A stretch of 32,000 bases of DNA, from the NCBI RefSeq assembly GCF_000007185.1, contig NC_003551.1:240001-272000 (forward strand). Reading direction: 5' to 3'. The DNA is from Methanopyrus kandleri AV19. GTDB taxonomy: Archaea; JAADCQ01; Methanopyri; Methanopyrales; Methanopyraceae. Shown one piece after another: positions 4,787 to 29,013 of the stretch. Within the stretch, counting starts at the first letter, position 1. Each line of letters opens with the position of its first letter. Made by a program: the position numbers and the translations under genes. The notes below the pieces were generated by a model that saw only the letters and a list, made by a program, of their open reading frames with translations, made no database searches and had not been told where the DNA came from.

Positions 4787-5512
4787 GTGTCCCTCCTGAA
4801 ACATCTTTCCGAGCTGGGATTGTCCGAACGAGAGGCGCGGGTGTACCTGTACCTGGTCCGCGCCGGTGAGGCCAACGCACGGGAGGTGAGCGAGGGAGTC
4901 GAGATCCCGTACTCGAAGGTTTACTCCGTCCTACGATCGCTGGAAGACAAGGGATGGGTGGAAGCCGACCGGAGCGCCAGACCTACCACCTACCGACCGG
5001 TATCCCCGGACGTCGCGGTGAAGCGAGCCCTGGAGCAAGAGCTGAACAGGATCCGACGTGAGCTGGAGGAACACGCCAAGGTCGCCGTGAGGAAACTTTC
5101 CGAGATATACAGAGCGGAACGCGAGACCGTGGCCCGCACGTATCACGGTAAGTCCGCCAGGGAAACGCTCGCAGAAGTGCTAAGATCGTCGGAAGACATA
5201 GCCTGCATCGTCCACTTAGGCCGCAATCTGCCACGCTGGCTCCTGGAGTCGCTTCGGCGGATGGAAGGTTTGATGATCCTTAGGGCTAAGGAAGGGTCCG
5301 AGGTCGCCGACGAACTGGAACCCGATGTGAAGGCACCCATCGATATCGAACCCCGAAACACCTTAATAGTGCTCTCAGCGGACCGCCGCGAGTTTTTCTT
5401 GGGTAAGTTCGGTGAGGGCGACTACCTGCTCTCACTCGAGGAGCCGATACTGGCCCAAGGGATTCACGATGCGGTCACGAGAGCGTGTAAATCGCGCTCA
5501 CGGCACGCTTGA
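4787..5512 (+). CDS. TrmB-family transcriptional regulator
   Basis: 241 aa. N-terminal wHTH LGLSEREARVYLYLVRAGEANAREVSEGVEIPYSKVYSVLRSLEDKGWV is typical of TrmB. GTG start lies 5 nt after the ppsA stop. Confidence 0.8.
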   Translation: MSLLKHLSELGLSEREARVYLYLVRAGEANAREVSEGVEIPYSKVYSVLRSLEDKGWVEADRSARPTTYRPVSPDVAVKRALEQELNRIRRELEEHAKVAVRKLSEIYRAERETVARTYHGKSARETLAEVLRSSEDIACIVHLGRNLPRWLLESLRRMEGLMILRAKEGSEVADELEPDVKAPIDIEPRNTLIVLSADRREFFLGKFGEGDYLLSLEEPILAQGIHDAVTRACKSRSRHA

Positions 5513-7038: not shown

Positions 7039-8334
7039 GTGAGAAAGTGTCGAGCCGAGGGGATCTTGTTGGATATCAGAGAGATTTGGAAAGAGCTCGG
7101 AATCGACCTAGAGCGGCATGATGAGTTGCTCGAAGCCCTGCCGGAGGTGTACGAAGAGATCTTCCTGAGTCAGGAAAACCGTCCCGAGCGTATGTCCTAC
7201 TTCGACGAGGTAGTCGCCGATATCCACGGCGCACGAGTCCGGGAGCTGTACGAGATGAGACAGGAGGGTAAACCGATCCTAGGGACGTTCTGCGTCTACG
7301 TGCCGGAGGAGATCGTCCTCGCCGCGGGCGGTGTTTGCGTAGGGTTATGTGGCGGAGCGGAGTTCCCGATCCCGGACGCCGAAAAGTACCTCCCACGCGA
7401 CCTGTGCCCGTTGATCAAATCGTCCTTCGGCTTCCTGGTATCCAGACTGTGCCCTTACTGCCAAGTCGCGACGGTAATCGTCGGCGAGAACACTTGCGAC
7501 GGCAAGAAGAAGATGTACGAGATAATGTCAGAACACAAGGATGTCTACGTGATGGAAATGCCGCAGGTGAAAGATGAAGAGGGTCTCGAGTACTGGCACG
7601 AGCAACTGATTAAATTCAAGGAGTTCGTAGAGGAACTATCCGGGAACGAAATCACCTATGAGTCATTATTAGATGCTATAGAACGTGTGAACGCCAAGCG
7701 GGAAGCCTTTAGAAAGTTATACGAGCTCAGGAAGCACGACCCAGCACCTATAAGCGGACGTGACGCGAACTTGATAGCCCAGATAGCGTTCTACGATGAT
7801 GTAGATAGATTCACAGAGAAGGTAAACGAACTCAACGAAGAGCTCGAAAAACGGGTGGAAGAAGGCGAAGGTGTCGCCGAGGAAGCACCGAGAATTCTCG
7901 TAGCCGGCACGCCGATGCCGATTCCACACTGGAAGCTGCTTTACGTCGTGGAGTCCTGCGGCGCGGTGGTAGTTTGTGAGGAGTCGTGCACGGGCACCAG
8001 GTACTTTGAACGGGAGGTCAGCACAGAAGGAGACGACGTTGAAGATCTTATTAAGAATATTGCGGAGGCATACATGGAAACGAAATGTGCTATCTTCACA
8101 CCGAACGATGAAAGAGTTAAAGATATTATTAAGAAATACAAAGAGTGGAACTGTGATGGGGTGATTTTGTATAACCTTAAATTCTGTCAACCGTACGCTG
8201 TGGAACACTCAAAGATCGAAAGTAGGCTGAGAGAAGAAGGAATCCCTGCACTAAAACTTGAATCCGACTACAGCGAGGAGGACGTGGAACAACTGAAAAC
8301 TAGGATCGAGACGTTCTTGGAGTCGATCGCCTAG
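7039..8334 (+). CDS. 2-hydroxyacyl-CoA dehydratase / benzoyl-CoA reductase D-component family protein (possibly double-cubane-cluster type)
   Basis: 431 aa, Cys-rich (LCPLIKSS, CPYCQ..ENTCDGKKKMYE, CEESCTGTRYF, KFCQPY), typical of the HgdB/BcrC-like family. The true start may be an internal TTG a few codons in. Confidence 0.75.
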   Translation: MRKCRAEGILLDIREIWKELGIDLERHDELLEALPEVYEEIFLSQENRPERMSYFDEVVADIHGARVRELYEMRQEGKPILGTFCVYVPEEIVLAAGGVCVGLCGGAEFPIPDAEKYLPRDLCPLIKSSFGFLVSRLCPYCQVATVIVGENTCDGKKKMYEIMSEHKDVYVMEMPQVKDEEGLEYWHEQLIKFKEFVEELSGNEITYESLLDAIERVNAKREAFRKLYELRKHDPAPISGRDANLIAQIAFYDDVDRFTEKVNELNEELEKRVEEGEGVAEEAPRILVAGTPMPIPHWKLLYVVESCGAVVVCEESCTGTRYFEREVSTEGDDVEDLIKNIAEAYMETKCAIFTPNDERVKDIIKKYKEWNCDGVILYNLKFCQPYAVEHSKIESRLREEGIPALKLESDYSEEDVEQLKTRIETFLESIA

Positions 8335-8341
8335 GGCCCGC

Positions 8342-9646
8342 TCACACCATCTCCTCGACCTTTTCTATGACCATTTCGAGGAATTCTACGTCGTTGAGCA
8401 TGCTTTCGGGTGGTTCGACGACCTTGCGCATCCTGATGGGTACTGAGTCCATTCGGTAGGCGGTGCCTTCCCATTCGATGCCGGCGATGGTTACGGGCAC
8501 GTACAGGTCGGCGAGTTCGGCGGTCGGCGTCCAGTGCGGGTCCACGCACACGAGCGGGATCCTAGCCATGTGCTCCACAGCCTTCCGCGGGAAGTGCGCA
8601 CCCGGATCACTGGCGATTACGAAGGCGGCGTCCACTTCTCCCCTGATCAGTACGTCCACCGCGGAGAACTCGCCTGGGTTGTACCGCGGGTACCCACGGC
8701 TGAAGTCCACGGCGAACGGGTAGCCCGTAGTCCACGTGAGCACCTCGTTGAAGCCGGTCACGTTGTAGTGACCTCGCATCATGATCAGAGTCCACTTCGC
8801 GTACTCGTTCAGATCTCGGATCAAGCAGATCGCGTTGTCGATGTTCCGATGACGACCCCGGGACATCGTGATGCCCATGCCCCAGAACAGTGTGCCGAAG
8901 CTGGCCTCCTTGATCAGGTCAGCGACCTCGTGCACGGCTTCCACCGGAATTCCCGCCACCTCCTCGCGCTCGATCTCGATCCCGTGAACAGCCGCCCGGA
9001 GCGCGCTGATCAGCTCATAGTCCTCGTTGGGTCTAACCTGCAGGTGGACGTCCGCTAGCTCGGCCGTAGCGGTCCTCCGCGGGTCCACGACGATGATAGT
9101 ACGATCCTCACGACCCTTCGGTCGGAAGAAGCCGCGGGTGAAGGCGGTGTAACGGCTCATGTGCCGCGGGTGGGCGTGCATAGGGTTGCAACCCCAGTAG
9201 ATGATGACGTCCGCTCGATTCTTCACTTCACCCAATGTACAGCTAGGAACACCGGCGTCTTGCAATCCAAGTGTTGACGGTCCATGACACACTGAAGCGG
9301 TATTATCTATCACAGCTCCAACTTTTTCTGCAATCTCTATCCCAACTTCATGTGCTTCACATAGCGTTGAAGACCAGCCATACATCAGAGGCCATTTCGC
9401 CTCAACAAGTATTCTTGCCGTCTCTTCTGCGGCGTCTTCGTAGTCGATTTTCTTCCATTCTCCGTTCTCTTTGATCATCGGCTCGGTGTGACGATGATCC
9501 TCCTGCGCCGTCAAGAACTTCGCAGCACCGATCCTACAAGCATGCCGTACTTCCACGATCTCACCGTCCTCCACGACCACCTCTAGATCATCACACAGCG
9601 TACCACAGAACGGACAGACCACATCCTTGATCACTTTACGACCCAA
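8342..9646 (-). CDS. fwdB: Formylmethanofuran dehydrogenase subunit B, cysteine-type (fwcB-like)
   Basis: 434 aa. N-terminal CPFCGTLCDD cluster motif. Active site NTASVCHGPS with Cys120 (TGT, 9287..9289) at the position held by Sec in Sec-type FwdB/FdhH. No other fwd subunits are adjacent. Confidence 0.9.
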   Translation of the reverse strand: MGRKVIKDVVCPFCGTLCDDLEVVVEDGEIVEVRHACRIGAAKFLTAQEDHRHTEPMIKENGEWKKIDYEDAAEETARILVEAKWPLMYGWSSTLCEAHEVGIEIAEKVGAVIDNTASVCHGPSTLGLQDAGVPSCTLGEVKNRADVIIYWGCNPMHAHPRHMSRYTAFTRGFFRPKGREDRTIIVVDPRRTATAELADVHLQVRPNEDYELISALRAAVHGIEIEREEVAGIPVEAVHEVADLIKEASFGTLFWGMGITMSRGRHRNIDNAICLIRDLNEYAKWTLIMMRGHYNVTGFNEVLTWTTGYPFAVDFSRGYPRYNPGEFSAVDVLIRGEVDAAFVIASDPGAHFPRKAVEHMARIPLVCVDPHWTPTAELADLYVPVTIAGIEWEGTAYRMDSVPIRMRKVVEPPESMLNDVEFLEMVIEKVEEMV

Positions 9647-9748: not shown

Positions 9749-10504
9749 TCATTTTTCTAATACCCATAAAGCAGCCCCAAATGCTCCGGCTACGTGGGCT
9801 TCATTAGGTACGTTTATCCCCATCTCCAGCCTGTCTGAGAGGAGCTCGGCGAAGACCCGACAGCGTGCCATGCCGCCGACCAGCACCACCTCGGGCTCCG
9901 GCGACACCTTGTCGATCATGGTGGCGACGCGCTCGGCCACGGAGTCGAGGACGCCCAGCAGGATCCTTTCGACGTCGATCCCGCGGTTCACCAGCGAGAT
10001 CACCTCCGTCTCCGCGAAGACCGCGCACATCGAGTTGATCTTCACGGGATCGTCCGCGCCGCTCGCGTGCTCGTCGACCTCCGACATCTCGATCCCGAGC
10101 CGCCGGCACACGTTCTCGACGAACCTCCCGGTACCGGCCGCACACTTGTCGTTCACCTGGAAGTCCACGACCTTGCCGTCCTCCACTTTCATCACCTTGG
10201 TATCCTGACCGCCCACGTCTATCACCGTCCTGGCACCTTCGACCAGCTGGGAGGCACCTAGGGCGACCGCAGGAAGCTCGGGCACGGTCTCATCGAACTC
10301 GTCGCTCAGAGCCTCCCTACCGTATCCCGTGACGGCCGTGACGTCGAACTCGTCGATGCCCGCGCCTAGCTCATCTAGGGCACGCCGTAGCACTTTCTTC
10401 ACGGGACCTGTCGACTCCACCACGGTATGGTCCTCGAGCGAGCCGTCCTCCACGATCGCACACTTCAGGTGGGAAGATCCCGCGTCCACGCCGAGGACCC
10501 GCAC
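9749..10504 (-). CDS. BadF/BadG/BcrA/BcrD-type ATPase (activase of 2-hydroxyacyl-CoA dehydratase-like enzymes, HgdC-like)
   Basis: 251 aa. MRVLGVDAGSSHLK is an ASKHA phosphate-1 motif; also VIDVGGQDTKV, KCAAGTGRF (cluster Cys) and VVLVGGMAR. Confidence 0.85.
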   Translation of the reverse strand: MRVLGVDAGSSHLKCAIVEDGSLEDHTVVESTGPVKKVLRRALDELGAGIDEFDVTAVTGYGREALSDEFDETVPELPAVALGASQLVEGARTVIDVGGQDTKVMKVEDGKVVDFQVNDKCAAGTGRFVENVCRRLGIEMSEVDEHASGADDPVKINSMCAVFAETEVISLVNRGIDVERILLGVLDSVAERVATMIDKVSPEPEVVLVGGMARCRVFAELLSDRLEMGINVPNEAHVAGAFGAALWVLEK

Positions 10505-10645
10505 GGTTTGTCCCCGGTTGATTTCTCCACGTACATCGCCTTGACGTCGTTGGGTGATTCATTCGATAGCTATTACCGAATTTCATACCATCACAGGACT
10601 CTTCATCAAGTACTCTAATGTCGTTTTGATACCGGAAAGAGCACT

Positions 10646-10654
10646 GATTATAAC
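10646..10654 (+). promoter_or_regulatory. TATA-like box (GATTATAAC) upstream of the yeeE-like operon
   Basis: About 45 nt upstream of ATG 10695, with GGGGGAG at 10681..10687 as ribosome-binding site. Confidence 0.35.
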
Positions 10655-10694
10655 GGGATGCGATACCGGCTGGCCGCACCGGGGGAGACGAAGC

Positions 10695-11156
10695 ATGGCC
10701 AGAGTATCACCGCTGGTTACGGGACTGGTAGCCGGCGTCTCCGCCGCGATACTGCAGGCGGTCTTCAAGGTCAGCCCACCACCGGCGTACGGGATCTGTA
10801 TAGCGTGCCACACCAGGGACCTGGTGAACTGGATAGTGAACCATGCCGCGGGAACCACGCTCGGGATGGCGCCGGTCTCCAAACCCTTCCCGGTGCTGAC
10901 CGTCGTGGGTATTTTCATCGGGGCACTGATCGCGGCGTTCGCCCACGGCGAGTTCAGGATTCGGAGGACCCACCATCCGATTCTAGGGTTCGTGCTCGGT
11001 TTCCTGGTCATCAACTTCGCACTCTTCATGGGTGGCTGTCCGATCCGAACGAGCCTGAGGACGATGTACGGGGACGTCGTAGCGCTCCTCGGACTGATCT
11101 CCATAGCCGTCGGCGTGATACTGGGCGCCGAGTTCTACCTCAAGAGAAAGGCGTGA
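10695..11156 (+). CDS. YeeE/YedE-family membrane protein, half-size (repeat 1 of a split transporter)
   Basis: 153 aa from the internal ATG of ORF 10554..11156. About 4 TM helices. Motifs ICIACHTRD and GGCPIR match the second half. Confidence 0.75.
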   Translation: MARVSPLVTGLVAGVSAAILQAVFKVSPPPAYGICIACHTRDLVNWIVNHAAGTTLGMAPVSKPFPVLTVVGIFIGALIAAFAHGEFRIRRTHHPILGFVLGFLVINFALFMGGCPIRTSLRTMYGDVVALLGLISIAVGVILGAEFYLKRKA

Positions 11157-11170
11157 GGGGGGAACGGAGC

Positions 11171-11644
11171 GTGGCGGAGTACCTGCACGCCATCGGGACG
11201 CTCGCGTTCGGCGTGCTGATCGGCTACCTGGGCCAGCGGTCCGCGATGTGCTTCATAGGAGGAATCCGAGACGTGTACCTACTACGCGACACGTGGCTCG
11301 TGCAGGGCCTGATCGGGTTCCTCATCGGTGCCTTCTTCGGGCTGGTGGTGTTCGGAGCCGCGGGTATGATCAAGAAGTTCCCGTGGTTCCTGTACAAGGG
11401 AGCGTCCGCCATCCCGGGTGACGTCCTCGGCAAGAAGCCGGGGTTCGCCGCCCACGCGGCGGTGACGGTGATAGGCGGTCTCGGCGTGGGTTTCCTGTCG
11501 GTGGTTCAGGGTGGCTGTCCGTTCAGGAACTACGTGATGGCGGCCGAGGGCAACGTGACTGCGATGGCGTACCTGCTAGGGGTGTTCGTCGGTGCGGTGT
11601 TCTTCCACGCCTGCATCGTGCCGATCTTCGGGCCGCCGAAGTGA
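11171..11644 (+). CDS. YeeE/YedE-family membrane protein, half-size (repeat 2 of a split transporter)
   Basis: 157 aa from GTG 11171, preceded by GAGGGGGG. Only the 3' part of ORF 10658..11644 is credible. Motifs MCFIGGIRD and GGCPFR. Confidence 0.75.
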   Translation: MAEYLHAIGTLAFGVLIGYLGQRSAMCFIGGIRDVYLLRDTWLVQGLIGFLIGAFFGLVVFGAAGMIKKFPWFLYKGASAIPGDVLGKKPGFAAHAAVTVIGGLGVGFLSVVQGGCPFRNYVMAAEGNVTAMAYLLGVFVGAVFFHACIVPIFGPPK

Positions 11645-11648
11645 GGGG

Positions 11649-12227
11649 ATGGAAATGGGGCTCCTCTCCCGCCTCCGCTCCGCGTTTTCCCGGGATGAGG
11701 GACCGTCAGACGAGCGCGAGGGTAAGGGCCTGATCGTCTTCGAAAGCGCCAGGGACGCGATGAAGGCGGAGAGGACCCTCAAGGAGGCCGGATACGACGT
11801 CCGGGCGGTGGCCCCACCGCCGGAGATCCGCGAGGGGTGCGACCTGGCGATCGAGTACGACCTCGTCGACGAGGTAGGCGTGCGCCGAACGCTCGAGGAG
11901 ATCGGTGTGGAACCGCTGAAGTTCGTATCACTCGAGGACCCTTCCCTCAAGCCCATCGAGCTGGTTCGCGTCAAGGAGGTCGACGGATACATCATGGTCC
12001 GATGCGGCAACATGAAGGTGACCGTGGATCGGGACGGGACGATAGTGAACGTGTCGGGTGGAGGGTGTCCCGACGTCCCTTACCTGGCGCATGAACTCGT
12101 GGGCAAGAACGTTCTCGAGCTGTCGGAGAACTCGATGCCGGCGAGCTTGGGATACACGCTCTGCGCGTACACCCTGGACAAAGCCGTGAGGAAGGCCAAG
12201 GAAGTACTCTTAGGGGAGGGAAGTTGA
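11649..12227 (+). CDS. DUF3343 (putative Se/S carrier-like) domain fused to an uncharacterised Cys-containing C-terminal domain
   Basis: 192 aa from ATG 11649. GLIVFESARDAMKAERTLKEAGYDVRAVAPPPEIREGCDLAIEYD fits the DUF3343 pattern. The C-terminal ~100 aa (VRCGNM..SGGGCPDVPY) is unassigned. Confidence 0.65.
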   Translation: MEMGLLSRLRSAFSRDEGPSDEREGKGLIVFESARDAMKAERTLKEAGYDVRAVAPPPEIREGCDLAIEYDLVDEVGVRRTLEEIGVEPLKFVSLEDPSLKPIELVRVKEVDGYIMVRCGNMKVTVDRDGTIVNVSGGGCPDVPYLAHELVGKNVLELSENSMPASLGYTLCAYTLDKAVRKAKEVLLGEGS

Positions 12228-13048
12228 TCATCGCGGGTACGGTTCCGATCGAAGGTCTCGGCCCCGTGGAGGGGAAGGTCGAGCCGCTGGACGATCGAAT
12301 ACGCGTCGCCGGTCGTGAGATACCCGTTTCCATGGGGACCGCCGCACTGGCCGCCGCGGCGGCCCGTGTTCTGGAGTTCCTGGGTGAGGATGAACCACGG
12401 CTTATCACCGCGGGGGATCTGGGAGAAGGGGACGGTAGTCTCGAGATCTACCGTCGCCTGAGGGAGGTCGACGATGACGTGCTCGTGATCCACTACATCA
12501 AGCCGAAGATAGACGAGATCCGACGCGTCGATACGTCAGGCAAGGTCATCGCGGACGCCGGAGGGATGTACGCCGCCAAGGCCGCGGGTATCGGACCCGA
12601 GTTTCACCTGTTCCTGCCGGACCCCGGAGAACTCGCGTTCCTCGCGGACGAGAAGGCCCATCATCCGGCCTACGTTCGAGGGTTCATCGCTGAAGTCGAC
12701 GAGGAGGAGGTTCCGAGCCTGGTGAGACGTGCCTACGAGGAGGACCAAGTCCCGGATTATATGGTGGTTAAGGGGAGGCGTGACCACGTCGTCCACCGGG
12801 GTGAAGTGGTGGAGACCGTCGATGAGCCCCTCGTCGAGGCCATGGAGTGCATCGGGGGTACGGGCGACACGCTCACGGGGATCGTCGCCGCACTCATCGC
12901 CGCGGGGTTCGGAACCGAGGAGGCGTGCGTGATCGGCTGTAGGGTGAACCGGAGGCTCGGTGAAATCGCGAACGCGACTCCGACAACTAGGATACACGAG
13001 CTCACCAGGGCGATACCGGAGGCCCTGTGCGAAGAACTGAGGGAGTGA
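12224..13048 (+). CDS. Ribokinase-fold protein resembling the YjeF_C / NAD(P)HX-dehydratase family (function unknown)
   Basis: 274 aa. C-terminal IGGTGDTLTGIVAALIAAG anion-hole motif. Block order (ADAGG.., LPDPGELAFL, VVKG) resembles Carb_kinase. The TTG start overlaps the upstream stop (TTGA). Confidence 0.55.
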   Translation: MIIAGTVPIEGLGPVEGKVEPLDDRIRVAGREIPVSMGTAALAAAAARVLEFLGEDEPRLITAGDLGEGDGSLEIYRRLREVDDDVLVIHYIKPKIDEIRRVDTSGKVIADAGGMYAAKAAGIGPEFHLFLPDPGELAFLADEKAHHPAYVRGFIAEVDEEEVPSLVRRAYEEDQVPDYMVVKGRRDHVVHRGEVVETVDEPLVEAMECIGGTGDTLTGIVAALIAAGFGTEEACVIGCRVNRRLGEIANATPTTRIHELTRAIPEALCEELRE

Positions 13049-13053
13049 GGAGG

Positions 13054-15024
13054 CTAAGCGGGGTCCCTGAAGGCCCCCTCGATCTGCTTGTACAACTGCT
13101 CGGTCTTGAAGTGGTTCTGCTCCATGGCACCGCTCGGGCACGCCGCCGCGCAGGTCCCGCATCCCTTGCACAAAGCGGCCGTGACTTCGGCCACGAGCTT
13201 CCCGTCCTTCTCGACGAGTTCTATGGCACCGTACGGACAGAGTTCCACGCAGGTACCACAACCGCCGCAGATCTCCTCGTCCACCTCCGATACTATGGGC
13301 TCTACGGCCACCTCACCGGCCGCCAATGCCGTGGCGGCGCGAGCCGCGGCGGCAGAACCCTGGGCGACCGAGGAGGGTATGTCCTTCGGACCTTGACACG
13401 CTCCGGCCAGGAAGATACCGTCGATCGCCGTGTCCACGGGCCGCAACTTCGGATGTGCTTCCATGAAGAAACCGTCCGGCGAACGTGAAATACTGAGGAC
13501 CTCCTGGATGACGTCGGCCGAGTCCCGCGGCACCATACCTACGGACAACACCACCAAGTCGTACTCCCTTTCGACCACGTCGCCGAGCAGCGTATCCTCG
13601 GCACGCACGATGAGGTTCTTGGTCTCCGGGTCCTCGACTATCTCCGCGGGCCGGCCGCGGATGAACCGGATGCCGTACTGCTTCTGCGAGCGTTCGTAGT
13701 ACTCCTCGTAACCCTTACCGAACGCCCGCACGTCCATGTAGTAGATATCGATCTGTGTCTCCGGGTACTTCTCCCGGATCAGCTGCGCCAACTTCATCGC
13801 GTACATGCAGCAAACGTTGGAGCAGTACGGATTGGTCCTGTGCGGGTCACGTGAGCCAACGCACTGGATGAATGCAATACGTTTCGGTTTCTTTCCATCA
13901 CTGGGCCTCACCACCTTGCCACCGGTGGGTCCCGAGGCGTTGATGAGCCTCTCCAGCTCTATCGACGTGATCACGTTGTCGTAGACGCCGTACCCGTACT
14001 CCTCGCGCTCGGTCGGGTCGCACGTGTCGTATCCGATGGCGCAGATGATAGCACCGACCTCTTCCTCGACGATCTCGGGCTCCTGATCGAAGTCTATCGC
14101 GTCGGCGTCGCATACCTCTTCGCAGAGACCGCATCGGATGCAGTGCTCCTCGTCGATCGTGAACACCGACGGGACCGCCTGCGGGAACGGCTTGTAGATG
14201 GCCTTCCTCATCCCCAGGCCCTCGTCGAACTCGTTGGGCACCTCGATCGGGCAGACCTCCGCGCACGCGCCGCAGCCCGTGCACGCGTCCTCGTCCACGT
14301 ACCGCGGCTTCTTCTCGATCTTCACCGTGAAGTTGCCCACGTACCCGTCCACCTCGACGACCTCGGCGTAGGTGTACATCTTGATGTTGGGATGCTTGGA
14401 CACGTCCACCATCTTCGGTGCCAAGATGCAGATGGAGCAGTCGTTCGTGGGGAACGTCTTGTCCAGCTGGGCCATCCTGCCCCCGATGGACGGCTCCTTC
14501 TCGACCAGGATGACCTCGAAGCCCATGTCCGCGAGGTCCAGGGCCGCCTGAATCCCGGAGACTCCGCCCCCGATGACCAGGGCGCGGTCGGTCACGTCCA
14601 CCTTGATGGTCTCGAGGGACTCGAGCAGCCGGGCCTTGGCCACCGCCATGCGGACGAGGTCCTTAGCTTTCTCCGTGGCCCTGGCCGGATCGTCCATGTG
14701 AACCCATGAGCAGTGCTCCCTGATGTTCGCCATCTCGAAGCAGTAGGGGTTCAACCCGGCCTCCTCGACGCACCGTCGGAACGTGGGCTCATGTAGCCTG
14801 GGCGAACAGGCCGCCACGACGACACGGTTCAGATCGTACTTCTCGATGTCGCGTTGAATGATCTCTTGACCCGGGTCGGAGCACACGTACTTGTAATCGC
14901 GCGCCACGACCACGTTCTTCAGCGTCTTGGCGAACTCGGCCACTTCCTTGACGTCGACGACGCCGGCGATGTTCACGCCGCAGTGGCACACGTAGACGCC
15001 GATGCGCGGCTCTTCCTCCGCCAA
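13054..15024 (-). CDS. hdrA: Heterodisulfide reductase subunit A, cysteine-type isoform (full length)
   Basis: 656 aa. [22 protein letters not shown], four ferredoxin CxxCxxCxxxCP motifs. Cys199 (TGC, 14428..14430) aligns with the TGA of the left-edge paralog. Confidence 0.95.
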
Positions 15025-15030
15025 CCACCA

Positions 15031-16479
15031 TCACCCCTCCACAATCCGAACTAGCCTACCGGCGCGGTGAACCTCGAGCGTGAGCCTGGGACGCTCGCCG
15101 AGTACGTGGGTCGCACAAGACAGGCAGGGGTCGTAAGCCCGGATCACCATCTCCATCCGGTTGAGGACCTCGGGGGAGGCGTCCTCGGGACTCCTCAGGT
15201 ACTCCTCAGCGACCTTCTTGACGCCGAGGTCCATGGCGGGGTTGTTCTGGACCGTGGCGACGATCAGGTTGACCTCGGTGATGAGCCCTTCCTCGTCCGT
15301 CTTGAAGTGGTGGATCAGCGTCCCACGCGGTGCCTCCACGCAGCCGATACCCTCGCCCGTGACGTCGTCCGGATCCACCTCCTCTCGGACATCGTCACCC
15401 GTGATCTCGTCGTCCTCTAGCAGCTCGACGCAGCGTTCGGCCGACGACAGCAGCTCGATCGTCCTCGCGTAATGATACAGCATCGGGTGGTGGCACGGTT
15501 TCCCGTACTCGTCGACGAGCTCCTCGTAACGCCCCTGAGCCCTGGGCGTGGCCATCCTGTCGCACACGTTGAGACGGGAGAGCGTGTTGACCCGGTAGAG
15601 TCCCTCCTCCTCGCCCTTGTCGCGCAGGTACGGGAACTTGAGGTAGGAGTACGGTCGCACGGCCTCGGCGATGTGATCGAGGTACTCCGACGGCTCGAAC
15701 TCCCTATCGACGTTGCCCTCAGGATCCACGACGCGGATCACACCGTCGTACAACTCGTGCACGCCGTCGCTGACCATCCCCATATGGTAAGACTCCAGAT
15801 ATCCGAGCTCGAGCAGTCCCTCCTCCTCGAGGCGCCGGGTTAGCTCCTCGGCCAAGTCGACGGTGCGCTCCGCCAGCTCGACCGCGCTCCTAGCGAGTTC
15901 GAGGAGCTCCTCCCGTCGGTCCTCCTCCAAGGGCTTAGATACGCCGCCCGGAACGGCGGTGACGGGGTGTATGGGCTTGCCACCGACCGCCTCCACTATC
16001 GTCTGTCCTATCTTCCTCAGCTCGATGGCACACTTCACGACCTCGGGGTTCTCCCTAGCCAGTGCGAGGACATGGCGCTTCATAGGATCCTCCTCTTCGG
16101 GTTTGACCAGGTCCGGTGCCGCGAGGAAGTAGAAGTGGAGCGCGTGACTGTGCACCGTCGCGGCGTGATGCATCAGCTCCCGCAGCTTCCGAGCCGGCTC
16201 CGGAGGCTCCACGCCGAAGACCTCGTCGGCGGCCTTGGCGCTGGCGAGGTGATGGGCCACCTGACATATCCCACAGATCCTCGGCGTCAGTATCGGGGCG
16301 TCCTCGATCGGTCTTCCTTCGAGGAACTTCTCGAAACCGCGGACTTCGACCACGTGGAATCTGGCGTCCTTCAGGTTCCCGTCCTCGTCGAACTCGACCA
16401 CGATCTTACCGTGACCCTCCACCCTGGTGACCGGCTCGACGTTCACTACCATCTCCGACAACGTACCGACCCCCCTCAC
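15031..16479 (-). CDS. mvhA: F420-non-reducing [NiFe] hydrogenase large subunit (Mvh/Vhc type, Cys form)
   Basis: 482 aa. N-terminal RICGICQVAHH and C-terminal DPCLSCATH Ni-binding motifs (first Cys TGC at 15124..15126). Not split into a VhuU-like peptide. Confidence 0.95.
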   Translation of the reverse strand: MRGVGTLSEMVVNVEPVTRVEGHGKIVVEFDEDGNLKDARFHVVEVRGFEKFLEGRPIEDAPILTPRICGICQVAHHLASAKAADEVFGVEPPEPARKLRELMHHAATVHSHALHFYFLAAPDLVKPEEEDPMKRHVLALARENPEVVKCAIELRKIGQTIVEAVGGKPIHPVTAVPGGVSKPLEEDRREELLELARSAVELAERTVDLAEELTRRLEEEGLLELGYLESYHMGMVSDGVHELYDGVIRVVDPEGNVDREFEPSEYLDHIAEAVRPYSYLKFPYLRDKGEEEGLYRVNTLSRLNVCDRMATPRAQGRYEELVDEYGKPCHHPMLYHYARTIELLSSAERCVELLEDDEITGDDVREEVDPDDVTGEGIGCVEAPRGTLIHHFKTDEEGLITEVNLIVATVQNNPAMDLGVKKVAEEYLRSPEDASPEVLNRMEMVIRAYDPCLSCATHVLGERPRLTLEVHRAGRLVRIVEG

Positions 16480-17390
16480 TCCCTATCCACCCTGAACGGC
16501 ATCAGCGAGCCGGCGAGCGTGAACCGGTAGAACCAGCCTACCACGTCAGGGACGGACTCCACGAGCTCGGAAGGGTCGACGTCGTCCACATCGGCCCGGA
16601 AGATCGAGGCGATCGCGGACATCATCTCCGCACCTTGGTCGGGGATTTCTCCGGCCGGTCCCGCACAACCCGCACACGGTACCCCGGCTTCGGGACAGCG
16701 TGCCCCGCACCCCGCCCGTGTAGCGGGTCCCATGCACGGGTAACCCTGCTCCAGCAAGCACCGGTCCGGATCGGGCTCACCCTCGACCGGGCGGCGGATC
16801 TCGTGGATCACGGTCTCTTCCTTCTTCCGAGGACACTCCTCGCAGAGGTTCGTCGTCGAGAGCTCGGGTTCGCGTCCGTCGAGGATCGCTGTGACCGCGT
16901 CCGCGATCAGGTCGGGCTCCGGGGGGCAGCCGGGTAACTCGTAATCGACGTCGATGACATCGGAGAGCGGGCGAACGCGCCACGTTAACTCTGGGACGTC
17001 TTCGGACGGTATCACACCGTCCTCGTTCTCCGTGCTGGCGGTTTCCACGTAGACGGTCCTCAGGAGCTCCTCGTTGGAGTACAGGTTGGCCAGTCCCGGG
17101 ACGCCGCCGTAGCAGGCGCAGGTACCCACCGCCACGACGATCTCCGCACGCTCCCTGAACTCCTCCGCTACCTCTACGTTCTCCTCGTTCCTGATACCAC
17201 CCTCGATCAGGACCACGTCCACATCCTCGGGGATCTCCTTGGTATCCATGAGCACGGGGCAGTGAACCAGCTCGGCGTCGCCCAGGAGGTCCAGAAGCCG
17301 CTCGTGGAGGTCCAACACCGAGACGTGGCAACCGGAGCAACAGCACAACCACGTCGTGGCGATCTTCACCAAACGCACCACCCCCTTCAC
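16476..17390 (-). CDS. mvhG: F420-non-reducing hydrogenase small subunit
   Basis: 304 aa. [27 protein letters not shown] and the C-terminal Cys cluster are typical of MvhG/VhuG. It has 4-nt overlaps with both neighbours. Confidence 0.9.
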
Positions 17391-17812
17391 AGCCTTTTCA
17401 ACCTCTCACGGAGTTCCAATGGTCCCAGCTCTAACAACGTCTGATGAAACTCAGTCATAACCTCAGCGAACTTCTCACCCTCCGAAGCTGAAATCCACTC
17501 GTATCTGAAACGCTCAGGTTCAATGCCTATTTCGGCTAAAAATTTCTTCAATAACTCGGCCCTTCTCCACCACTTGTAATTACCTGATTGGTAATGACAA
17601 TCTCCCAAGTGACATCCTCCTACGAACACTCCATCAGCACCTTCTCTAAACGCTTTTAAAACAAGAGATGGTTCTATTCGTCCCGAGCACATCACCCGAA
17701 TAATTCGAGTACTTGGAGGATATTGCATCCTACCAACGCCAGCGGTATCCGCTCCTCCGTACGAGCACCAATTGCAGCAGAAAGCTATGATTTTAGGTTT
17801 CCACTCTCCCAT
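17387..17812 (-). CDS. mvhD: F420-non-reducing hydrogenase iron-sulfur subunit D (all-Cys form)
   Basis: [42 protein letters not shown] is typical of MvhD. I place the start at ATG 17810..17812 (GGAGGG ribosome-binding site) rather than the TTG at 17866. Confidence 0.9.
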
Positions 17813-17852
17813 AGACGCCCTCCGGAGCTCCTTTGTCCACATAAGAAAAAGC

Positions 17853-17861
17853 TTATTATTT
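17853..17861 (-). promoter_or_regulatory. TATA-like box (AAATAATAA on the minus strand) upstream of mvhD
   Basis: About 45 nt upstream of the preferred mvhD ATG. It lies inside the N-terminal extension of the longest ORF, which supports the shorter start. Confidence 0.35.
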
Positions 17862-18053
17862 GACAAATTTCAGCGCTATTCCCCGAACTTAAACCCCATA
17901 AGTTACCTCCTACCGATCAATTTGCGTGATCATAAGTGACATCGATCTCCATTGAAAGCGTTAGAGCAACTGTCCTCGTACGTGGCCGAAAACCGCGCCG
18001 GGAATCGGTGGGACTTTAAACTCGCAGGGATACGGGTGGGGAGGGGCCGTACC

Positions 18054-26245: not shown

Positions 26246-26977
26246 ATGTTGGAGTGGCGTCCCGAGCCCGGTTATGACCCTTTAGAGACAGCGGAACGTG
26301 TGCGTGGGTGGGTGTGTGAAGGAAGACGACGAAAGTACTACCGGTTCCGGGAGACCCGCTTCTACGGTGGATGCGCCACGGCCGACGCCGTGGGGTGCAA
26401 CCTCGACTGTGCTTACTGTTACGTTAATTACCCGCGGAGGCATCCCTGGGACCGACGCTGGAAGTTTCACCGGCCAATCGACGTTGTGGAGCGCCTGAAG
26501 AACATGGGGGGCGATGTCGTGCGTGTTTCCGGCTGCGAACCGACGCTGTGTAAGGAGCACATCCTCGAGCTCATCGAGCTCTGCGGGCGGGAACTCCCCG
26601 ACCGGAAGTTCGTCCTGGAGACGAACGGCACGATCCTGGGAGCCGACCGTTCGTTCGTGAGGGAACTAGGGAATCACGAACACGTTCACGTACGCGTGTG
26701 TCTGAAGGGGTACGATCCTCAATCGTTCGCGCGAATCACCAACGCGAACCCGGACGGGTTCGATCTACAGCTCCGGTGCTTAAGATATCTTTTTAAAGAG
26801 GGAATATCCTTCCACCCGGCCATACCCCGTCTGTTCCGCCCGGAAGATATCGACAAGCTAGCCGGAGTACTCTCGGACATCGGAGTCCCACCCTCATCAC
26901 TCGAAGTGGAGCCGATCAGGGTCTATGACCACGTCCGTAGGGAGTTGAGACGGCGGGGGCTAACGGTTGTGCGGTGA
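26246..26977 (+). CDS. Radical SAM protein (uncharacterised subfamily)
   Basis: 243 aa. GCNLDCAYCYV is a CxxxCxxC motif, preceded by YYRFRETRFYGGCATAD. GAGGAG ribosome-binding site. The 3' end overlaps the next gene by 11 nt. Confidence 0.85.
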   Translation: MLEWRPEPGYDPLETAERVRGWVCEGRRRKYYRFRETRFYGGCATADAVGCNLDCAYCYVNYPRRHPWDRRWKFHRPIDVVERLKNMGGDVVRVSGCEPTLCKEHILELIELCGRELPDRKFVLETNGTILGADRSFVRELGNHEHVHVRVCLKGYDPQSFARITNANPDGFDLQLRCLRYLFKEGISFHPAIPRLFRPEDIDKLAGVLSDIGVPPSSLEVEPIRVYDHVRRELRRRGLTVVR

Positions 26978-28979
26978 TCCAGGGCTTCTCACGCTGGTCT
27001 TGCTCATCCTACTACTAGCGGTGGCCTCTTTGCCCGCGGGTTCTGTGGTTTTGGCCTCGGCCTTAGCCCCCGTGGCGGTGGTCGGCGGACTAGCACTCGA
27101 GTACGGCCTCGTAGATCCGAGGACCGTGCCCGTGTTCGGACTACTCGCGGTCCCCGGACTCATCCTAGGACTCCGAACAGCCCGAAAATACCCCAAACAA
27201 CACCTACGCCACAGGCTAATCATAGCGGTAATTATCACAGTGACTTTTTTTCTTTCAAATTTAACAATATACGTGTTTAAGGGAACAGTATCTTTCGTAG
27301 CAGGCGGAGACGTACCCAGGCATGCTTCTCTAGCGTTGTCTTTCCTCACTACCGGTAAGCCTCCCGTTTTCTACGATACGTTGAGGCGGGAGTATCGTCC
27401 CGTTCATTACCCCTCGGGACTCGGACACGCGGCGATCACGGAGTCGATCGTGTCGTTGTTATTCCATCCGAAAGATCTACGGGAAGCGGCGAGCTGGCGA
27501 GTTCAGTACGGTTCAACAATTATTGAACTCGTTGAATACCATGTGAGCACAGCCATGATAGCATCAGCCATCATCGACATCATCCTCCTTACGCTCGGAC
27601 GATTGCCTATTTTAGTAGCTACACTTGTAGCATGCGCAATATATTTGACGTATCCTGGACCGGTGCCGTTCTTTCAGTCACTAGCTATGCTATCAGCATC
27701 GATCGTAGCTATAATTCTTAATTCACGATGGATTTCAACATTTTTAATACTAAGTGCTGTAGTAATTCATTTCTATAGTGTGGTGGTCATGAGCTTACTT
27801 ATTCCAGTTCTGATCCAAACTAGAAAACAATCCACTATATCGTTACTCCTTGGTATGGCAACTGGAATCATTATACAATTCCCTTACGTACACTGGAGTG
27901 CGGCAGTGCATTTCCCACGTTATCCAGCCCACCCGAATCACTTACCACCAGATCGGGAGTTAGGGCCGATAGTGTACATAATACAATTTATGTTTACAGC
28001 ATTTGCTGCATATCCACCGTTCATTTTCCCCAATGCTAGTGATATGCTATATACTATCCCATTTATAGCCGCTGTAATGTTAATACTTATCAGAATTCGG
28101 AAATTATTACCGCAAGATCTCAAAATAATATGGATCATGTATATAACCACTATTGTTATCTTAGGAGTTACCTTCGGGCGATTCATTGGAAAACGATTTT
28201 TATTTACTGCACCATTGTTAACGACTTTAACTTTAGGTTTTGCAGCAGCAAATTACCACTTATTAGCGCTCAGTATACTAATTAGTTATTGCGCTTTAAC
28301 TACTGATTGGTGGTACATATATTTCATTAATACTCCACCAATCGATGTATTAGAAAAACATTGGAAACTATTCTATAATTCATTCTGCAAGGGTGAGACT
28401 ATCGCTACAGTATCAATAGGCTTACTGCCATTCACATCCACATGGAAACCACAAAAGGTAGCTCAGGTAGTTAGAACGTTCCCAGAACCAGGTTTGCCCA
28501 TATTGGTTACTGAAGAGGAAAACAACCTCACCCTAAGACTTCTACCGTTAACTCAAGTCAAAGGCAAATACATCGTGGAGAAGTTACCACCAACGAAACG
28601 TGTCTGGTCAGTCGACGACCGGGCAGGCTCATTCAGACGGAACGTCCTAGTAGCAGCGGAACGGTACGACTCACACGTCCTGACGTATGTGGCAATAATG
28701 AGCTACGGCTCGGTACCCACCGTGTTAGTCATTAAGGGGAAGACGTGGGGAGCCTCCATGGCCTTCATGACACTCATGGAGCCTACCGATGATTTATCAG
28801 TGTTTATCAGGACGCGACATGTCCCCAACGGGTATTTAGTCAGAATCTCAGATTGGCAAGGTGTGAGGGTTATGAAGATAACGATCTCCGGGGCCAGATG
28901 GGTTGGTGATAAACTGGTGTTCCACGGATCTCTGAGGGACCTCATCGCGAACATACGAGTCACCGGCGACTTGGTTTAA
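26967..28979 (+). CDS. Large polytopic membrane protein, paralog A (>=12 predicted TM helices plus a ~190-aa C-terminal soluble domain)
   Basis: 670 aa, TTG start. Motifs shared with paralog B: PPVFYDTLR.EYRPVHYPSGLGH, PFFQSLAML, PYVHWS..FPRYPAHPNHLPPDR, LLPFT.TWKP, VVRTFPEP. Confidence 0.8.
   Translation: MCGDPGLLTLVLLILLLAVASLPAGSVVLASALAPVAVVGGLALEYGLVDPRTVPVFGLLAVPGLILGLRTARKYPKQHLRHRLIIAVIITVTFFLSNLTIYVFKGTVSFVAGGDVPRHASLALSFLTTGKPPVFYDTLRREYRPVHYPSGLGHAAITESIVSLLFHPKDLREAASWRVQYGSTIIELVEYHVSTAMIASAIIDIILLTLGRLPILVATLVACAIYLTYPGPVPFFQSLAMLSASIVAIILNSRWISTFLILSAVVIHFYSVVVMSLLIPVLIQTRKQSTISLLLGMATGIIIQFPYVHWSAAVHFPRYPAHPNHLPPDRELGPIVYIIQFMFTAFAAYPPFIFPNASDMLYTIPFIAAVMLILIRIRKLLPQDLKIIWIMYITTIVILGVTFGRFIGKRFLFTAPLLTTLTLGFAAANYHLLALSILISYCALTTDWWYIYFINTPPIDVLEKHWKLFYNSFCKGETIATVSIGLLPFTSTWKPQKVAQVVRTFPEPGLPILVTEEENNLTLRLLPLTQVKGKYIVEKLPPTKRVWSVDDRAGSFRRNVLVAAERYDSHVLTYVAIMSYGSVPTVLVIKGKTWGASMAFMTLMEPTDDLSVFIRTRHVPNGYLVRISDWQGVRVMKITISGARWVGDKLVFHGSLRDLIANIRVTGDLV
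27016..27208 (+). repeat. 5' conserved block, copy 1 (193 bp; partner 29060..29252)
   Basis: By-eye alignment at offset 2044 gives 5 mismatches in 193 bp. The first 97 nt are identical. Confidence 0.9.
28873..28972 (+). repeat. 3' conserved block, copy 1 (100 bp, identical to 30947..31046)
   Basis: By-eye alignment at offset 2074 gives 100/100 identity. The block ends 7 nt before each stop codon. Confidence 0.9.
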
Positions 28980-29013
28980 GAGTGCGTGTGAACGTGCCGT
29001 AGGGGGCCAGTTA

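Follow-up and report, generated by a model that had tools for sequence, protein, structure and literature searches.

How cells take up trace selenium amid an excess of sulfur and pass it on to selenophosphate synthetase is a standing question, and a 2024 study of Methanococcus maripaludis states that transporters specific for selenium are not known from any organism (PMC11097638). The closest described genes come from two studies. In Lin et al. (2015), YedE, YedF and DUF3343 are candidate selenium genes; this YedE subfamily, which is also the one treated here, is reported to be split into two adjacent genes in archaea, and DUF3343, with its conserved cysteine, is proposed as a selenium chaperone (PMC5322559), a role comparable to that considered below for the carrier protein g3. 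In Funkner et al. (2024), which covers the M. maripaludis locus MMJJ_13010 to MMJJ_12980 with the four-gene order described below, MMJJ_13010, MMJJ_13000 and MMJJ_12990 are reported to respond to selenium and to be induced by selenium starvation (PMC11097638). Here, the corresponding operon of Methanopyrus kandleri AV19 is described. It occupies positions 10695-13048 of a stretch of 32,000 nucleotides (nt) (contig NC_003551.1, positions 240,001 to 272,000, forward strand), which was analysed as a whole and is referred to as the window. The M. kandleri operon includes neither a YedF nor a TusA gene. No mention was found, in the searched passages of these papers (PMC5322559; PMC11097638), of the DUF8182 domain, the selenocysteine (Sec)/cysteine site, the kinase-fold gene or the fusions of the carrier gene to the kinase-fold gene, all of which are presented below.

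We consider it probable, with moderate confidence, that the four genes, here called g1 to g4, constitute one operon for the high-affinity acquisition and hand-over of selenium, in which g4 would process carrier-bound selenium for the selenophosphate synthetase SelD. The genes and the region from which they may be expressed are as follows.

10695-11156, plus strand: g1, ATG start, 153 amino acids (aa), YedE-type channel, N-terminal half
11171-11644, plus strand: g2, GTG start, 157 aa, YedE-type channel, C-terminal half
11649-12227, plus strand: g3, ATG start, 192 aa, two-domain carrier protein
12224-13048, plus strand: g4, TTG start, 274 aa, divergent ribokinase-fold enzyme
10505-10694, no strand: intergenic spacer of 190 bp, common to g1 and a divergent activase gene

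Judged by homology, the four open reading frames (ORFs) are real genes and not chance ORFs, because g3 is 100% identical to an annotated protein of M. kandleri AV19 (P0121 and P0122 both match) and homologues of g3 (about 2060) and g4 (about 1720) are numerous, with E-values down to 1e-160. The TTG start of g4 is backed by the family-wide N-terminus M-[IL]-x-[IV]-x-G-T-[VIM]-P, and for g3 an alternative ATG at 11655, used by RefSeq, would give a protein of 190 aa. The junctions consist of a 14-nt gap between g1 and g2 (11157-11170), a 4-nt gap between g2 and g3 (10 nt with the RefSeq start) and a 4-nt overlap, TTGA, between g3 and g4 (12224-12227). The same boundaries had been given in the first-pass annotation of the window, a model's reading of the letters, and they are borne out here, as is the presence in g1 to g4 of every motif that it quoted. 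Each gene is preceded by a Shine-Dalgarno-like G-rich stretch, namely GGGGGAG at 10681-10687, 7 nt before the ATG of g1; GAGGGGGG at 11155-11162, ahead of g2; GAGGGG at 11643-11648, ahead of g3; and GGGGAGGG at 12213-12220, ahead of g4. The spacer at 10505-10694, which contains an A+T-rich ATTATAA at about 10647-10653, is the only stretch long enough for a promoter of the four genes and could serve as one. Because the gaps are too short for internal promoters and only this spacer could hold one, a single transcript is the simplest reading of the gene layout. The end of g4 lies 5 nt from the stop codon of a convergent hdrA gene.

The pairing of g3 with g4 is conserved over a wide range of organisms. 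A pattern scan with the g4 profile, covering one genome per GTDB species, confirmed at least 560 relatives, and the local synteny of the 80 best-scoring loci was analysed; all counts out of 80 refer to these loci. Their hosts are Thermodesulfobacteriota, Nitrospirota, Dehalococcoidia/Anaerolineae, Clostridia, Actinomycetota, Bathyarchaeia and Methanococcales, and the M. maripaludis locus has the four genes in identical order. The carrier gene stands directly upstream of g4 in 77/80 loci, and at 75 of 78 junctions the stop codon of g3 either overlaps the start of g4 or is separated from it by at most 20 nt. A YedE gene is present in 72/80 loci, and only three loci lack it despite enough flanking sequence. 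Between YedE and the carrier, a TusA-like gene of about 75 aa is found in 57/80 loci; it is absent from M. kandleri and Methanococcales. The module is thus well conserved outside M. kandleri. The first-pass annotation had proposed a co-occurrence analysis across archaea; the module proves to be mostly bacterial and not specifically archaeal.

The two genes also occur as one. A hidden Markov model (HMM) search of 1.8 billion representative proteins revealed in-frame fusions with the arrangement DUF3343-DUF8182-linker-g4, 514-588 aa in length, in five 50%-identity clusters.

Fusion proteins: P0246, P0253, P0254, P0256, P0270
Fusion loci: L117, 753-2393; L118, 4350-6110; L120, 960-2504

The fusion gene is found after TusA, and the order in L118 is seleno_YedE-TusA-fusion-SelD. 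Because of these natural fusions and their contexts, the carrier g3 and the kinase-fold protein g4 almost certainly act together, as far as gene structure can tell. The literature searched contains no mention of the conserved g3-g4 pair, of g3::g4 fusions, of the DUF8182 Sec/Cys site, of a link to double-cubane proteins or of the name 'DUF8182' itself, and no paper combining YedE with a 'carbohydrate kinase' in a selenium context was found in it. Often (15 loci, e.g., L005:8865-9098, L041:8858-9109 and L078:4586-4819) the gene after g4 encodes a small DUF1858 protein that has a C-x-C-C motif, and DUF1858 is a listed selenoprotein family (CxxU) (PMC13188914).

The carrier protein g3 is composed of two domains.

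11724-11927, plus strand: N-terminal domain of g3, DUF3343/Se_S_carrier, residues 26-93 (PF11823, 67 bits against a cut-off of 25)
11949-12209, plus strand: C-terminal domain of g3, DUF8182, residues about 101-187 (PF26554, precomputed for the identical protein)

The score of the N-terminal domain is well above the cut-off, in agreement with the initial DUF3343 assignment, and its Cys64 (EGCDLAIEYD; GCDL) is invariant in 23/23 aligned homologues. The remainder of g3 had been described as an unassigned domain of about 100 aa; it is indeed a separate C-terminal domain with a Cys motif, but it is now filed as PF26554/DUF8182, an assignment that is precomputed for P0121, i.e., g3, and for all 120 homologues among the matches listed. 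The DUF8182 motif N-x-S-G-G-G-C-P-D-V-P-Y-L is invariant. Its form in g3 is SGGGCPDVPY, in which Cys140 is encoded by TGT at 12066-12068 and is hence Cys, not Sec, in M. kandleri; Cys172 is also invariant. In the AlphaFold2 model of g3 (mean predicted local distance difference test, pLDDT, 88.9), an alpha/beta domain is followed by a four-strand beta-meander and helices. An HMM search for relatives of solved structure yielded only a designed Rossmann protein (E 0.009), and Foldseek against the PDB gave no match at E<1e-3, just ACT-like ones with a template modelling (TM) score of about 0.25.

In some organisms, the codon at the position of Cys140 is an in-frame TGA. This was observed in 38 contigs belonging to two divergent clades (SGGG-U-PD[IV]P), namely three Dehalococcoidia genomes (L012:7823-7825, L032:7837-7839 and L007:2050-2052) and 35 further contigs (L082-L116) recovered by a metagenome scan for the TGA form, all of which carry true homologues. 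In the three Dehalococcoidia genomes, the conserved frame runs on beyond the TGA to a normal stop and is then followed by g4, and a g4 gene comes after the TGA-type g3 in every contig with enough flanking sequence. The TGA likely encodes selenocysteine, and DUF8182 would accordingly be a selenoprotein family. Because Sec and Cys are paired at an invariant position, Cys140 is the predicted reactive centre of g3. The RNA downstream of the codon was also inspected. In clade A, a 5-bp hairpin with a GGUCU loop is located 17-29 nt downstream of the U of UGA and shows one compensatory pair (GC to UA, 3/23); in clade B, there is an invariant 20-nt stretch, which can pair in 93% of cells and shows no covariation. 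Because the covariation expected of a selenocysteine insertion sequence (SECIS) is weak in clade A and absent from clade B, it is the Sec/Cys alignment, and not the RNA structure, on which the assignment of selenocysteine rests. In-frame stops in homologues of g4, YedE, TusA, YedF, DUF1858, ThiS and JAB were just read-through beyond true stop codons. A text search of a 2026 review cataloguing prokaryotic selenoproteins gave no entry for DUF3343, PF11823, PF26554 or the GGGU motif.

The channel is encoded by g1 and g2. The former carries ICIACHTRD (Cys35 and Cys38) and GGCPIR (Cys115), the latter carries MCFIGGIRD (Cys27) and GGCPFR (Cys116), and the two proteins are mutually alignable around GGCP[IF]R. 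Both pass the Pfam gathering cut-off of 27 for PF04143 (Sulf_transp, YeeE/YedE), with 33.2 bits for g1 and 34.2 bits for g2, which upholds their initial assignment to YeeE/YedE. The best NCBIfam match for both halves is TIGR04112 (seleno_YedE, 'YedE family putative selenium transporter'), which they cover colinearly, g1 at model positions 3-133 of 337 (75.3 bits) and g2 at positions 187-307 (67.6 bits); its cut-off of 200 bits was set for single-chain proteins, and each half, as well as the 143-bit sum, falls below it. This colinear coverage and the alignment of g1 to g2 agree with the first-pass view that each half gene corresponds to one internal repeat of YedE. Hydropathy indicates about four hydrophobic segments in each protein, and the M. 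maripaludis orthologue of g1 is 68% identical. Conserved pore cysteines are found in each repeat and may be equivalent to Cys22, Cys91 and Cys293 of TsuA.

In most bacteria, YedE is a single protein of about 360 aa. Besides M. kandleri, the split form occurs in Methanococcales, in one of two Bathyarchaeia loci (L039) and in Dehalococcoidia and Anaerolineae (L007, L012, L032, L060 and L074; metagenome contigs L083-L116). The gene order in Dehalococcoidia and Anaerolineae is g3-g4-YedE_N-YedE_C, and a second complete module, with a single-chain YedE, a Cys-type g3, g4, TusA and YedF, often stands in tandem with the Sec-type one. As far as we can tell, the split of YedE in Chloroflexota (Dehalococcoidia and Anaerolineae) is new, as it is not mentioned in the literature searched.

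The fourth gene encodes a protein in which the motif GGTGDTLTG occupies residues 211-219 (12854-12880). Its first five residues, G211-G212-T213-G214-D215 (GGTGD, 12854-12868), are invariant across the g4 family, as are the family-specific motifs DAGxMYxxK and F-x-P-D-x-G-E-L-A-F-L-x-D. The AlphaFold2 model (pLDDT 92, predicted TM score 0.92) has a ribokinase-like fold, and Foldseek returned 198 PDB chains at E<=1e-3, of which the 50 listed are all ribokinase-like kinases or Nnr. Because neither the aspartate-containing GGTGD anion hole nor the P-D-x-G-E motif varies across the family and the ribokinase fold is confidently predicted, g4 looks catalytically competent, with nucleotide-dependent phosphoryl transfer as the predicted activity. 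The original designation of g4 as a YjeF_C-like protein of ribokinase fold is supported by both profile and model: PF01256 (Carb_kinase/YjeF_C) is passed with 33.0 bits against a cut-off of 27, over residues 94-263 only. The protein is divergent, however, as its score of 27.8 bits with TIGR00196 (yjeF_cterm, the NnrD equivalog) is far below the cut-off of 129.85.

The resemblance to NnrD raises the question of whether g4 is simply a housekeeping NnrD that is adjacent to transporter genes. Homologues are named 'NAD(P)H-hydrate dehydratase' by RefSeq and JGI, PF01256 is passed, and among solved structures the Nnr protein TM0922 is closest in fold (TM 0.64). This explanation is scarcely credible, since the structural match to TM0922 has 16% identity, and the alignment of the g4 profile to its sequence is limited to positions 221-281, the C-terminal third. 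Moreover, g4 adjoins g3 in 77/80 genomes of distant phyla, mostly with overlapping ends, and is fused to it in five clusters, which would be unexpected for a housekeeping repair enzyme. Because TIGR00196 is missed by about 100 bits and the genomic context disagrees, the database name is probably an over-annotation of the g4 family.

The chalcogen handled by the module is most likely selenium, judging from homology and gene context, because DUF3343 has a published link to selenium and selenium starvation induces the orthologues in M. maripaludis. Selenium depletion of M. maripaludis JJ raised the expression of the two yedE halves, MMJJ_13010 and MMJJ_13000, by +5.40 and +5.28 log2, respectively, and that of the DUF3343 gene MMJJ_12990 by +2.28 log2 (PMC11097638). 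The single-chain YedE proteins of the module in other genomes point in the same direction, as all those tested pass TIGR04112, with 381-495 bits against the cut-off of 200. Furthermore, selenium genes recur in the vicinity of the module, with SelD (TIGR00476, 355 bits) in 20/80 loci, the selenium regulator LysR_Sec_metab (NF040786, 258 bits) in 17/80 and YedF (TIGR03527, 185 bits) in 9/80, so that at least one of the three is near the module in 30/80 loci. A 'SelD' flagged by clustering in the M. maripaludis locus L001 turned out to be methanogenesis marker 2 and was removed from these counts. Named archaeal homologues among the top matches all belong to Methanopyrus or Methanococcales, which are the classical selenocysteine-using methanogens. 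The first-pass annotation had suggested uptake and activation of a chalcogen species by an uncharacterised combination of genes. The former interpretation is supported and can be refined to selenium as the most likely chalcogen; the latter statement is true for the C-terminal domain of g3, for g4 and for the combination, but not for the split YedE and the DUF3343-selenium link, which were published in 2015.

Several points weigh against an operon for selenium acquisition. According to the M. maripaludis study, deletion of both yedE halves caused no clear selenium-utilisation phenotype with ten selenium sources, and MMJJ_12980, the orthologue of g4, is absent from the one supplementary file searched, in which the selenium-regulated genes are tabulated (PMC11097638). 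In M. maripaludis, the yedE and carrier genes are separated by a 61-nt gap. DUF3343 proteins are also found in organisms without SelD, as stated by Lin et al. (PMC5322559). Downstream of g4, genes for sulfur carriers of the ThiS/JAB/ThiF type, not SelD, are located in 10-12/80 loci. PF04143 covers true thiosulfate and sulfur importers too, and selenite reacts with thiols spontaneously, so that a need for ATP is not obvious. Finally, the linkage to SelD is the local synteny of the 80 best-scoring loci, and the functions of g3 and g4 are predicted ones.

Some of these points would be accommodated by a module for sulfur, in which thiosulfate or zero-valent sulfur would enter through the YedE-type channel, g3 would be a persulfide carrier, and g4 would aid delivery to thiocarboxylate carriers or cofactor biosynthesis. 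Both the occurrence of DUF3343 without SelD and the deletion without a selenium phenotype (PMC5322559; PMC11097638) are in its favour, as are the loci with genes for ThiS, a JAB-like protein, two Lyase_1 proteins and ThiF after g4. In addition, the thiosulfate importer TsuA/YeeE and SoxT are both PF04143 proteins (PMC11582611), and sulfur is handled by the analogous YeeE-TusA-DsrEFH type II ('YTD') cluster (PMC13293266). However, the models of the thiosulfate transporter TsuA/YeeE, NF041049 and NF052577, give just 14-26 bits with g1 and g2 against cut-offs of 645 and 400, whereas seleno_YedE is the best match, and the single-chain partners that pass TIGR04112 include those of the ThiS-type loci. 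The proximity of SelD, LysR_Sec_metab or YedF in 30/80 loci, the reported induction by selenium starvation and the difference of the YTD proteins (DsrEFH type II) from g3 and g4 also argue against sulfur, which we regard as a possible but unlikely substrate.

The ThiS-type loci (L020, L024, L027, L030, L031, L038, L042, L044, L053, L059, L067 and L072) are found in Desulfocapsa-, Desulfobulbaceae- and Thermodesulfatator-type hosts, and TusA is missing from them. Their gene order after g4 is a ThiS-like protein, a protein of 190 aa (JAB-like?), a Glu/Leu/Phe/Val-dehydrogenase-like protein, two Lyase_1 proteins and ThiF. This set suggests a thiocarboxylate or selenocarboxylate pathway that may be fed by the module.

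The deletion phenotype also bears on the idea that the genes sense selenium or sulfur status, the YedE-type protein being a signal transducer comparable to SoxT1B and g3 and g4 a relay to regulators. The YeeE-like SoxT1B acts in signalling (PMC11582611), the selenium-type LysR regulator adjoins the module in 17/80 loci, and deletion of yedE had no uptake phenotype (PMC11097638). The same deletion nevertheless left the selenium reporter repressed, and neither in M. kandleri nor in M. maripaludis was a regulator gene identified as an immediate neighbour of the four genes; the closest candidate within the window encodes a TrmB-type regulator at 4787-5512, about 5 kb upstream. As a kinase-fold enzyme that is fused to a carrier, with SelD next in order, fits metabolism better, a sensory role is very improbable.

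Selenium acquisition and hand-over is therefore retained as the preferred reading. Against the observed background of gene anatomy, domain and fold assignments, synteny, g3::g4 fusions, the Sec/Cys pair and the curated selenium-gene linkage, the following course may be proposed, in which we infer what is transported, how the relay is ordered, that g3 and g4 form a complex, and the whole of the g4 chemistry. The two YedE halves would assemble into a pseudo-symmetric channel, the same as that of the bacterial single-chain 'seleno-YedE', and an inorganic selenium species would traverse the membrane by way of its four or five pore cysteines. Within the cytoplasm, selenium would be captured covalently on the cysteines of g3, first on Cys64 of DUF3343, and would then move to Cys140 (probably selenocysteine in some organisms) in the Gly-rich loop of DUF8182. 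In complex with g3, g4 would act on the species held by the carrier with the help of a nucleotide, ATP or ADP. Our best guess, held with low confidence, is that this step is a phosphorylate-then-eliminate reaction like that of NnrD, by which a selenium-oxygen species would be dehydrated or condensed onto the thiol of the carrier, or else released. SelD would finally receive selenium that is reduced and protein-bound.

A bolder version of this proposal is advanced tentatively, as falling well short of probable. In it, g3 and g4 would form a two-component selenium-assimilation enzyme, in which selenium held by Cys/Sec140 gives rise to a phosphorylated Se-O/Se-P intermediate in the g4 site before SelD, and a double-cubane reductase and its activase may supply low-potential electrons. 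If this is true, the two-component g3-g4 system would fill the missing selenium-specific steps from the environment to selenophosphate, with a new selenoprotein family and the first physiological role for a double-cubane protein.

The natural g3/g4 fusions and the position of the Sec/Cys pair in a Gly-rich loop have a bearing on a further explanation, namely that g3 and g4 are a two-component selenium-activating kinase. The Cys/Sec loop of DUF8182 would carry selenium into the ATP site of g4, and the product would be selenophosphate or a precursor, generated in parallel to or upstream of SelD. The N-terminal loop of SelD is likewise Gly-rich and contains Cys or Sec; the phosphoryl-transfer motifs of ribokinases are kept in g4; and one locus has the order YedE-TusA-fusion-SelD. 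Nevertheless, SelD adjoins the module in 20/80 loci, so it is not replaced by g4, and the characterised members of the ribokinase superfamily phosphorylate small-molecule hydroxyls, none of them acting, to our knowledge, on a protein-bound group or on selenium. With a product that is itself a conjecture, such a kinase is quite unlikely.

Whichever chemistry applies to g4, this operon, with counterparts known from at least 560 species, places beside a candidate channel a carrier with a Sec/Cys site, a predicted nucleotide-dependent enzyme and, in some genomes, a double-cubane reductase. Concrete genes and residues are thus offered for knock-out and assay, and the module represents a testable candidate route by which selenium is brought into selenoprotein synthesis.

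The genes upstream of the operon include two that recur with the module elsewhere.

9749-10504, minus strand: activase-type ATPase (acyl-CoA-dehydratase-activase type), 251 aa (PF01869, 181.5 bits; TIGR00241, 241.7 against 125.4)
7039-8334, plus strand: double-cubane-cluster protein (DCCP)-type anaerobic reductase, 431 aa (NF040772, 495.8 against 350; PDB 6ENO/7YYL, 530 bits, E about 1e-158)

The activase gene is divergent from g1, and the double-cubane gene lies two genes further on; the activase is likely the reductase partner of the double-cubane protein. Beside the module, activase homologues are found in L011, L065, L068, L069, L076 and L080, and double-cubane homologues in L063, L068, L076 and L080 (45-51% identity) and also in L011 and L065. 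Homologues of both stand beside the module or SelD in 6/80 loci, including L076 (9758-11818), with the order G3-G4-TusA-DCCP-activase-SelD, and L080 (9372-13434). The two proteins may be a fifth and a sixth component of the module, perhaps supplying reducing power, although their link to it is weaker than that among the four genes. We know of no physiological substrate of double-cubane proteins, and a role in selenium reduction is a lead.

Other neighbours encode a FwdB-like molybdopterin subunit (8342-9646, minus strand; active-site motif SVCHGP), HdrA (13054-15024, minus strand; NDCSIC) and MvhA/G/D-type hydrogenase proteins (15031-17866, minus strand). All of them have cysteine at positions that can be selenocysteine in Methanococcus, and they could represent selenium-independent isoenzymes clustered about the genes for selenium uptake. 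In the literature searched, no match was obtained for 'fwcB' combined with 'Methanopyrus kandleri'. At 26967-31053 of the window (plus strand), the G+C content falls from about 0.62 to 0.44-0.50, and two large ORFs (670 and 679 aa) have no Pfam match; this region may be a foreign or lineage-specific island.

Taken as a whole, the module may be classed as a YeeE/YedE-type chalcogen import and relay system, and it can be compared with several known ones. It resembles TsuA(YeeE)-TsuB(YeeD) in its PF04143 domain, its cysteine-lined pore and the small cytoplasmic cysteine protein encoded next door as acceptor (PMC11582611), but here the channel consists of two chains, the partner is DUF3343-DUF8182 and not a TusA-like YeeD, and a kinase-fold enzyme is added. 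The division into two chains recalls PmpA/PmpB of Serratia, two proteins of about 130-150 aa that correspond to the N- and C-terminal halves of YeeE/YedE (PMC11582611). PmpA/PmpB, however, belong to another subfamily with sulfur as the predicted substrate, have one conserved cysteine per half, whereas two cysteine motifs are present here, and have no described carrier or kinase partner. The YTD cluster likewise unites a small sulfurtransferase with an importer of the YeeE family and a dedicated acceptor downstream, all in one operon, and its host phyla largely overlap with those of the module (Desulfobacterota and Nitrospirota) (PMC13293266). Its downstream proteins, in contrast, are DsrE-like, serve dissimilatory sulfur oxidation, have dsr genes and not SelD as neighbours, and are unrelated to g3 and g4. 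Identity of the module with the published 'YTD' sulfur-disproportionation cluster was considered and rejected, the two 'conserved hypothetical proteins' of that cluster being now DsrEFH type II (PMC13293266).

NnrD/YjeF_C, which includes the nearest solved structure, shares with g4 the ribokinase-like fold, the GxGD anion hole and the P-[HD]-x-G-E motif, but g4 is set apart, beyond the low identity of 16%, by an N-terminal beta-meander of its own, by its family-specific invariant motifs and by its pairing with a cysteine carrier. SelD, like the g3-g4 pair as envisaged here, is an ATP-using enzyme of selenium metabolism with Cys or Sec in a Gly-rich loop; its AIRS/PurM fold, however, is unrelated, and SelD is present in addition to g3 and g4, often as their direct neighbour.

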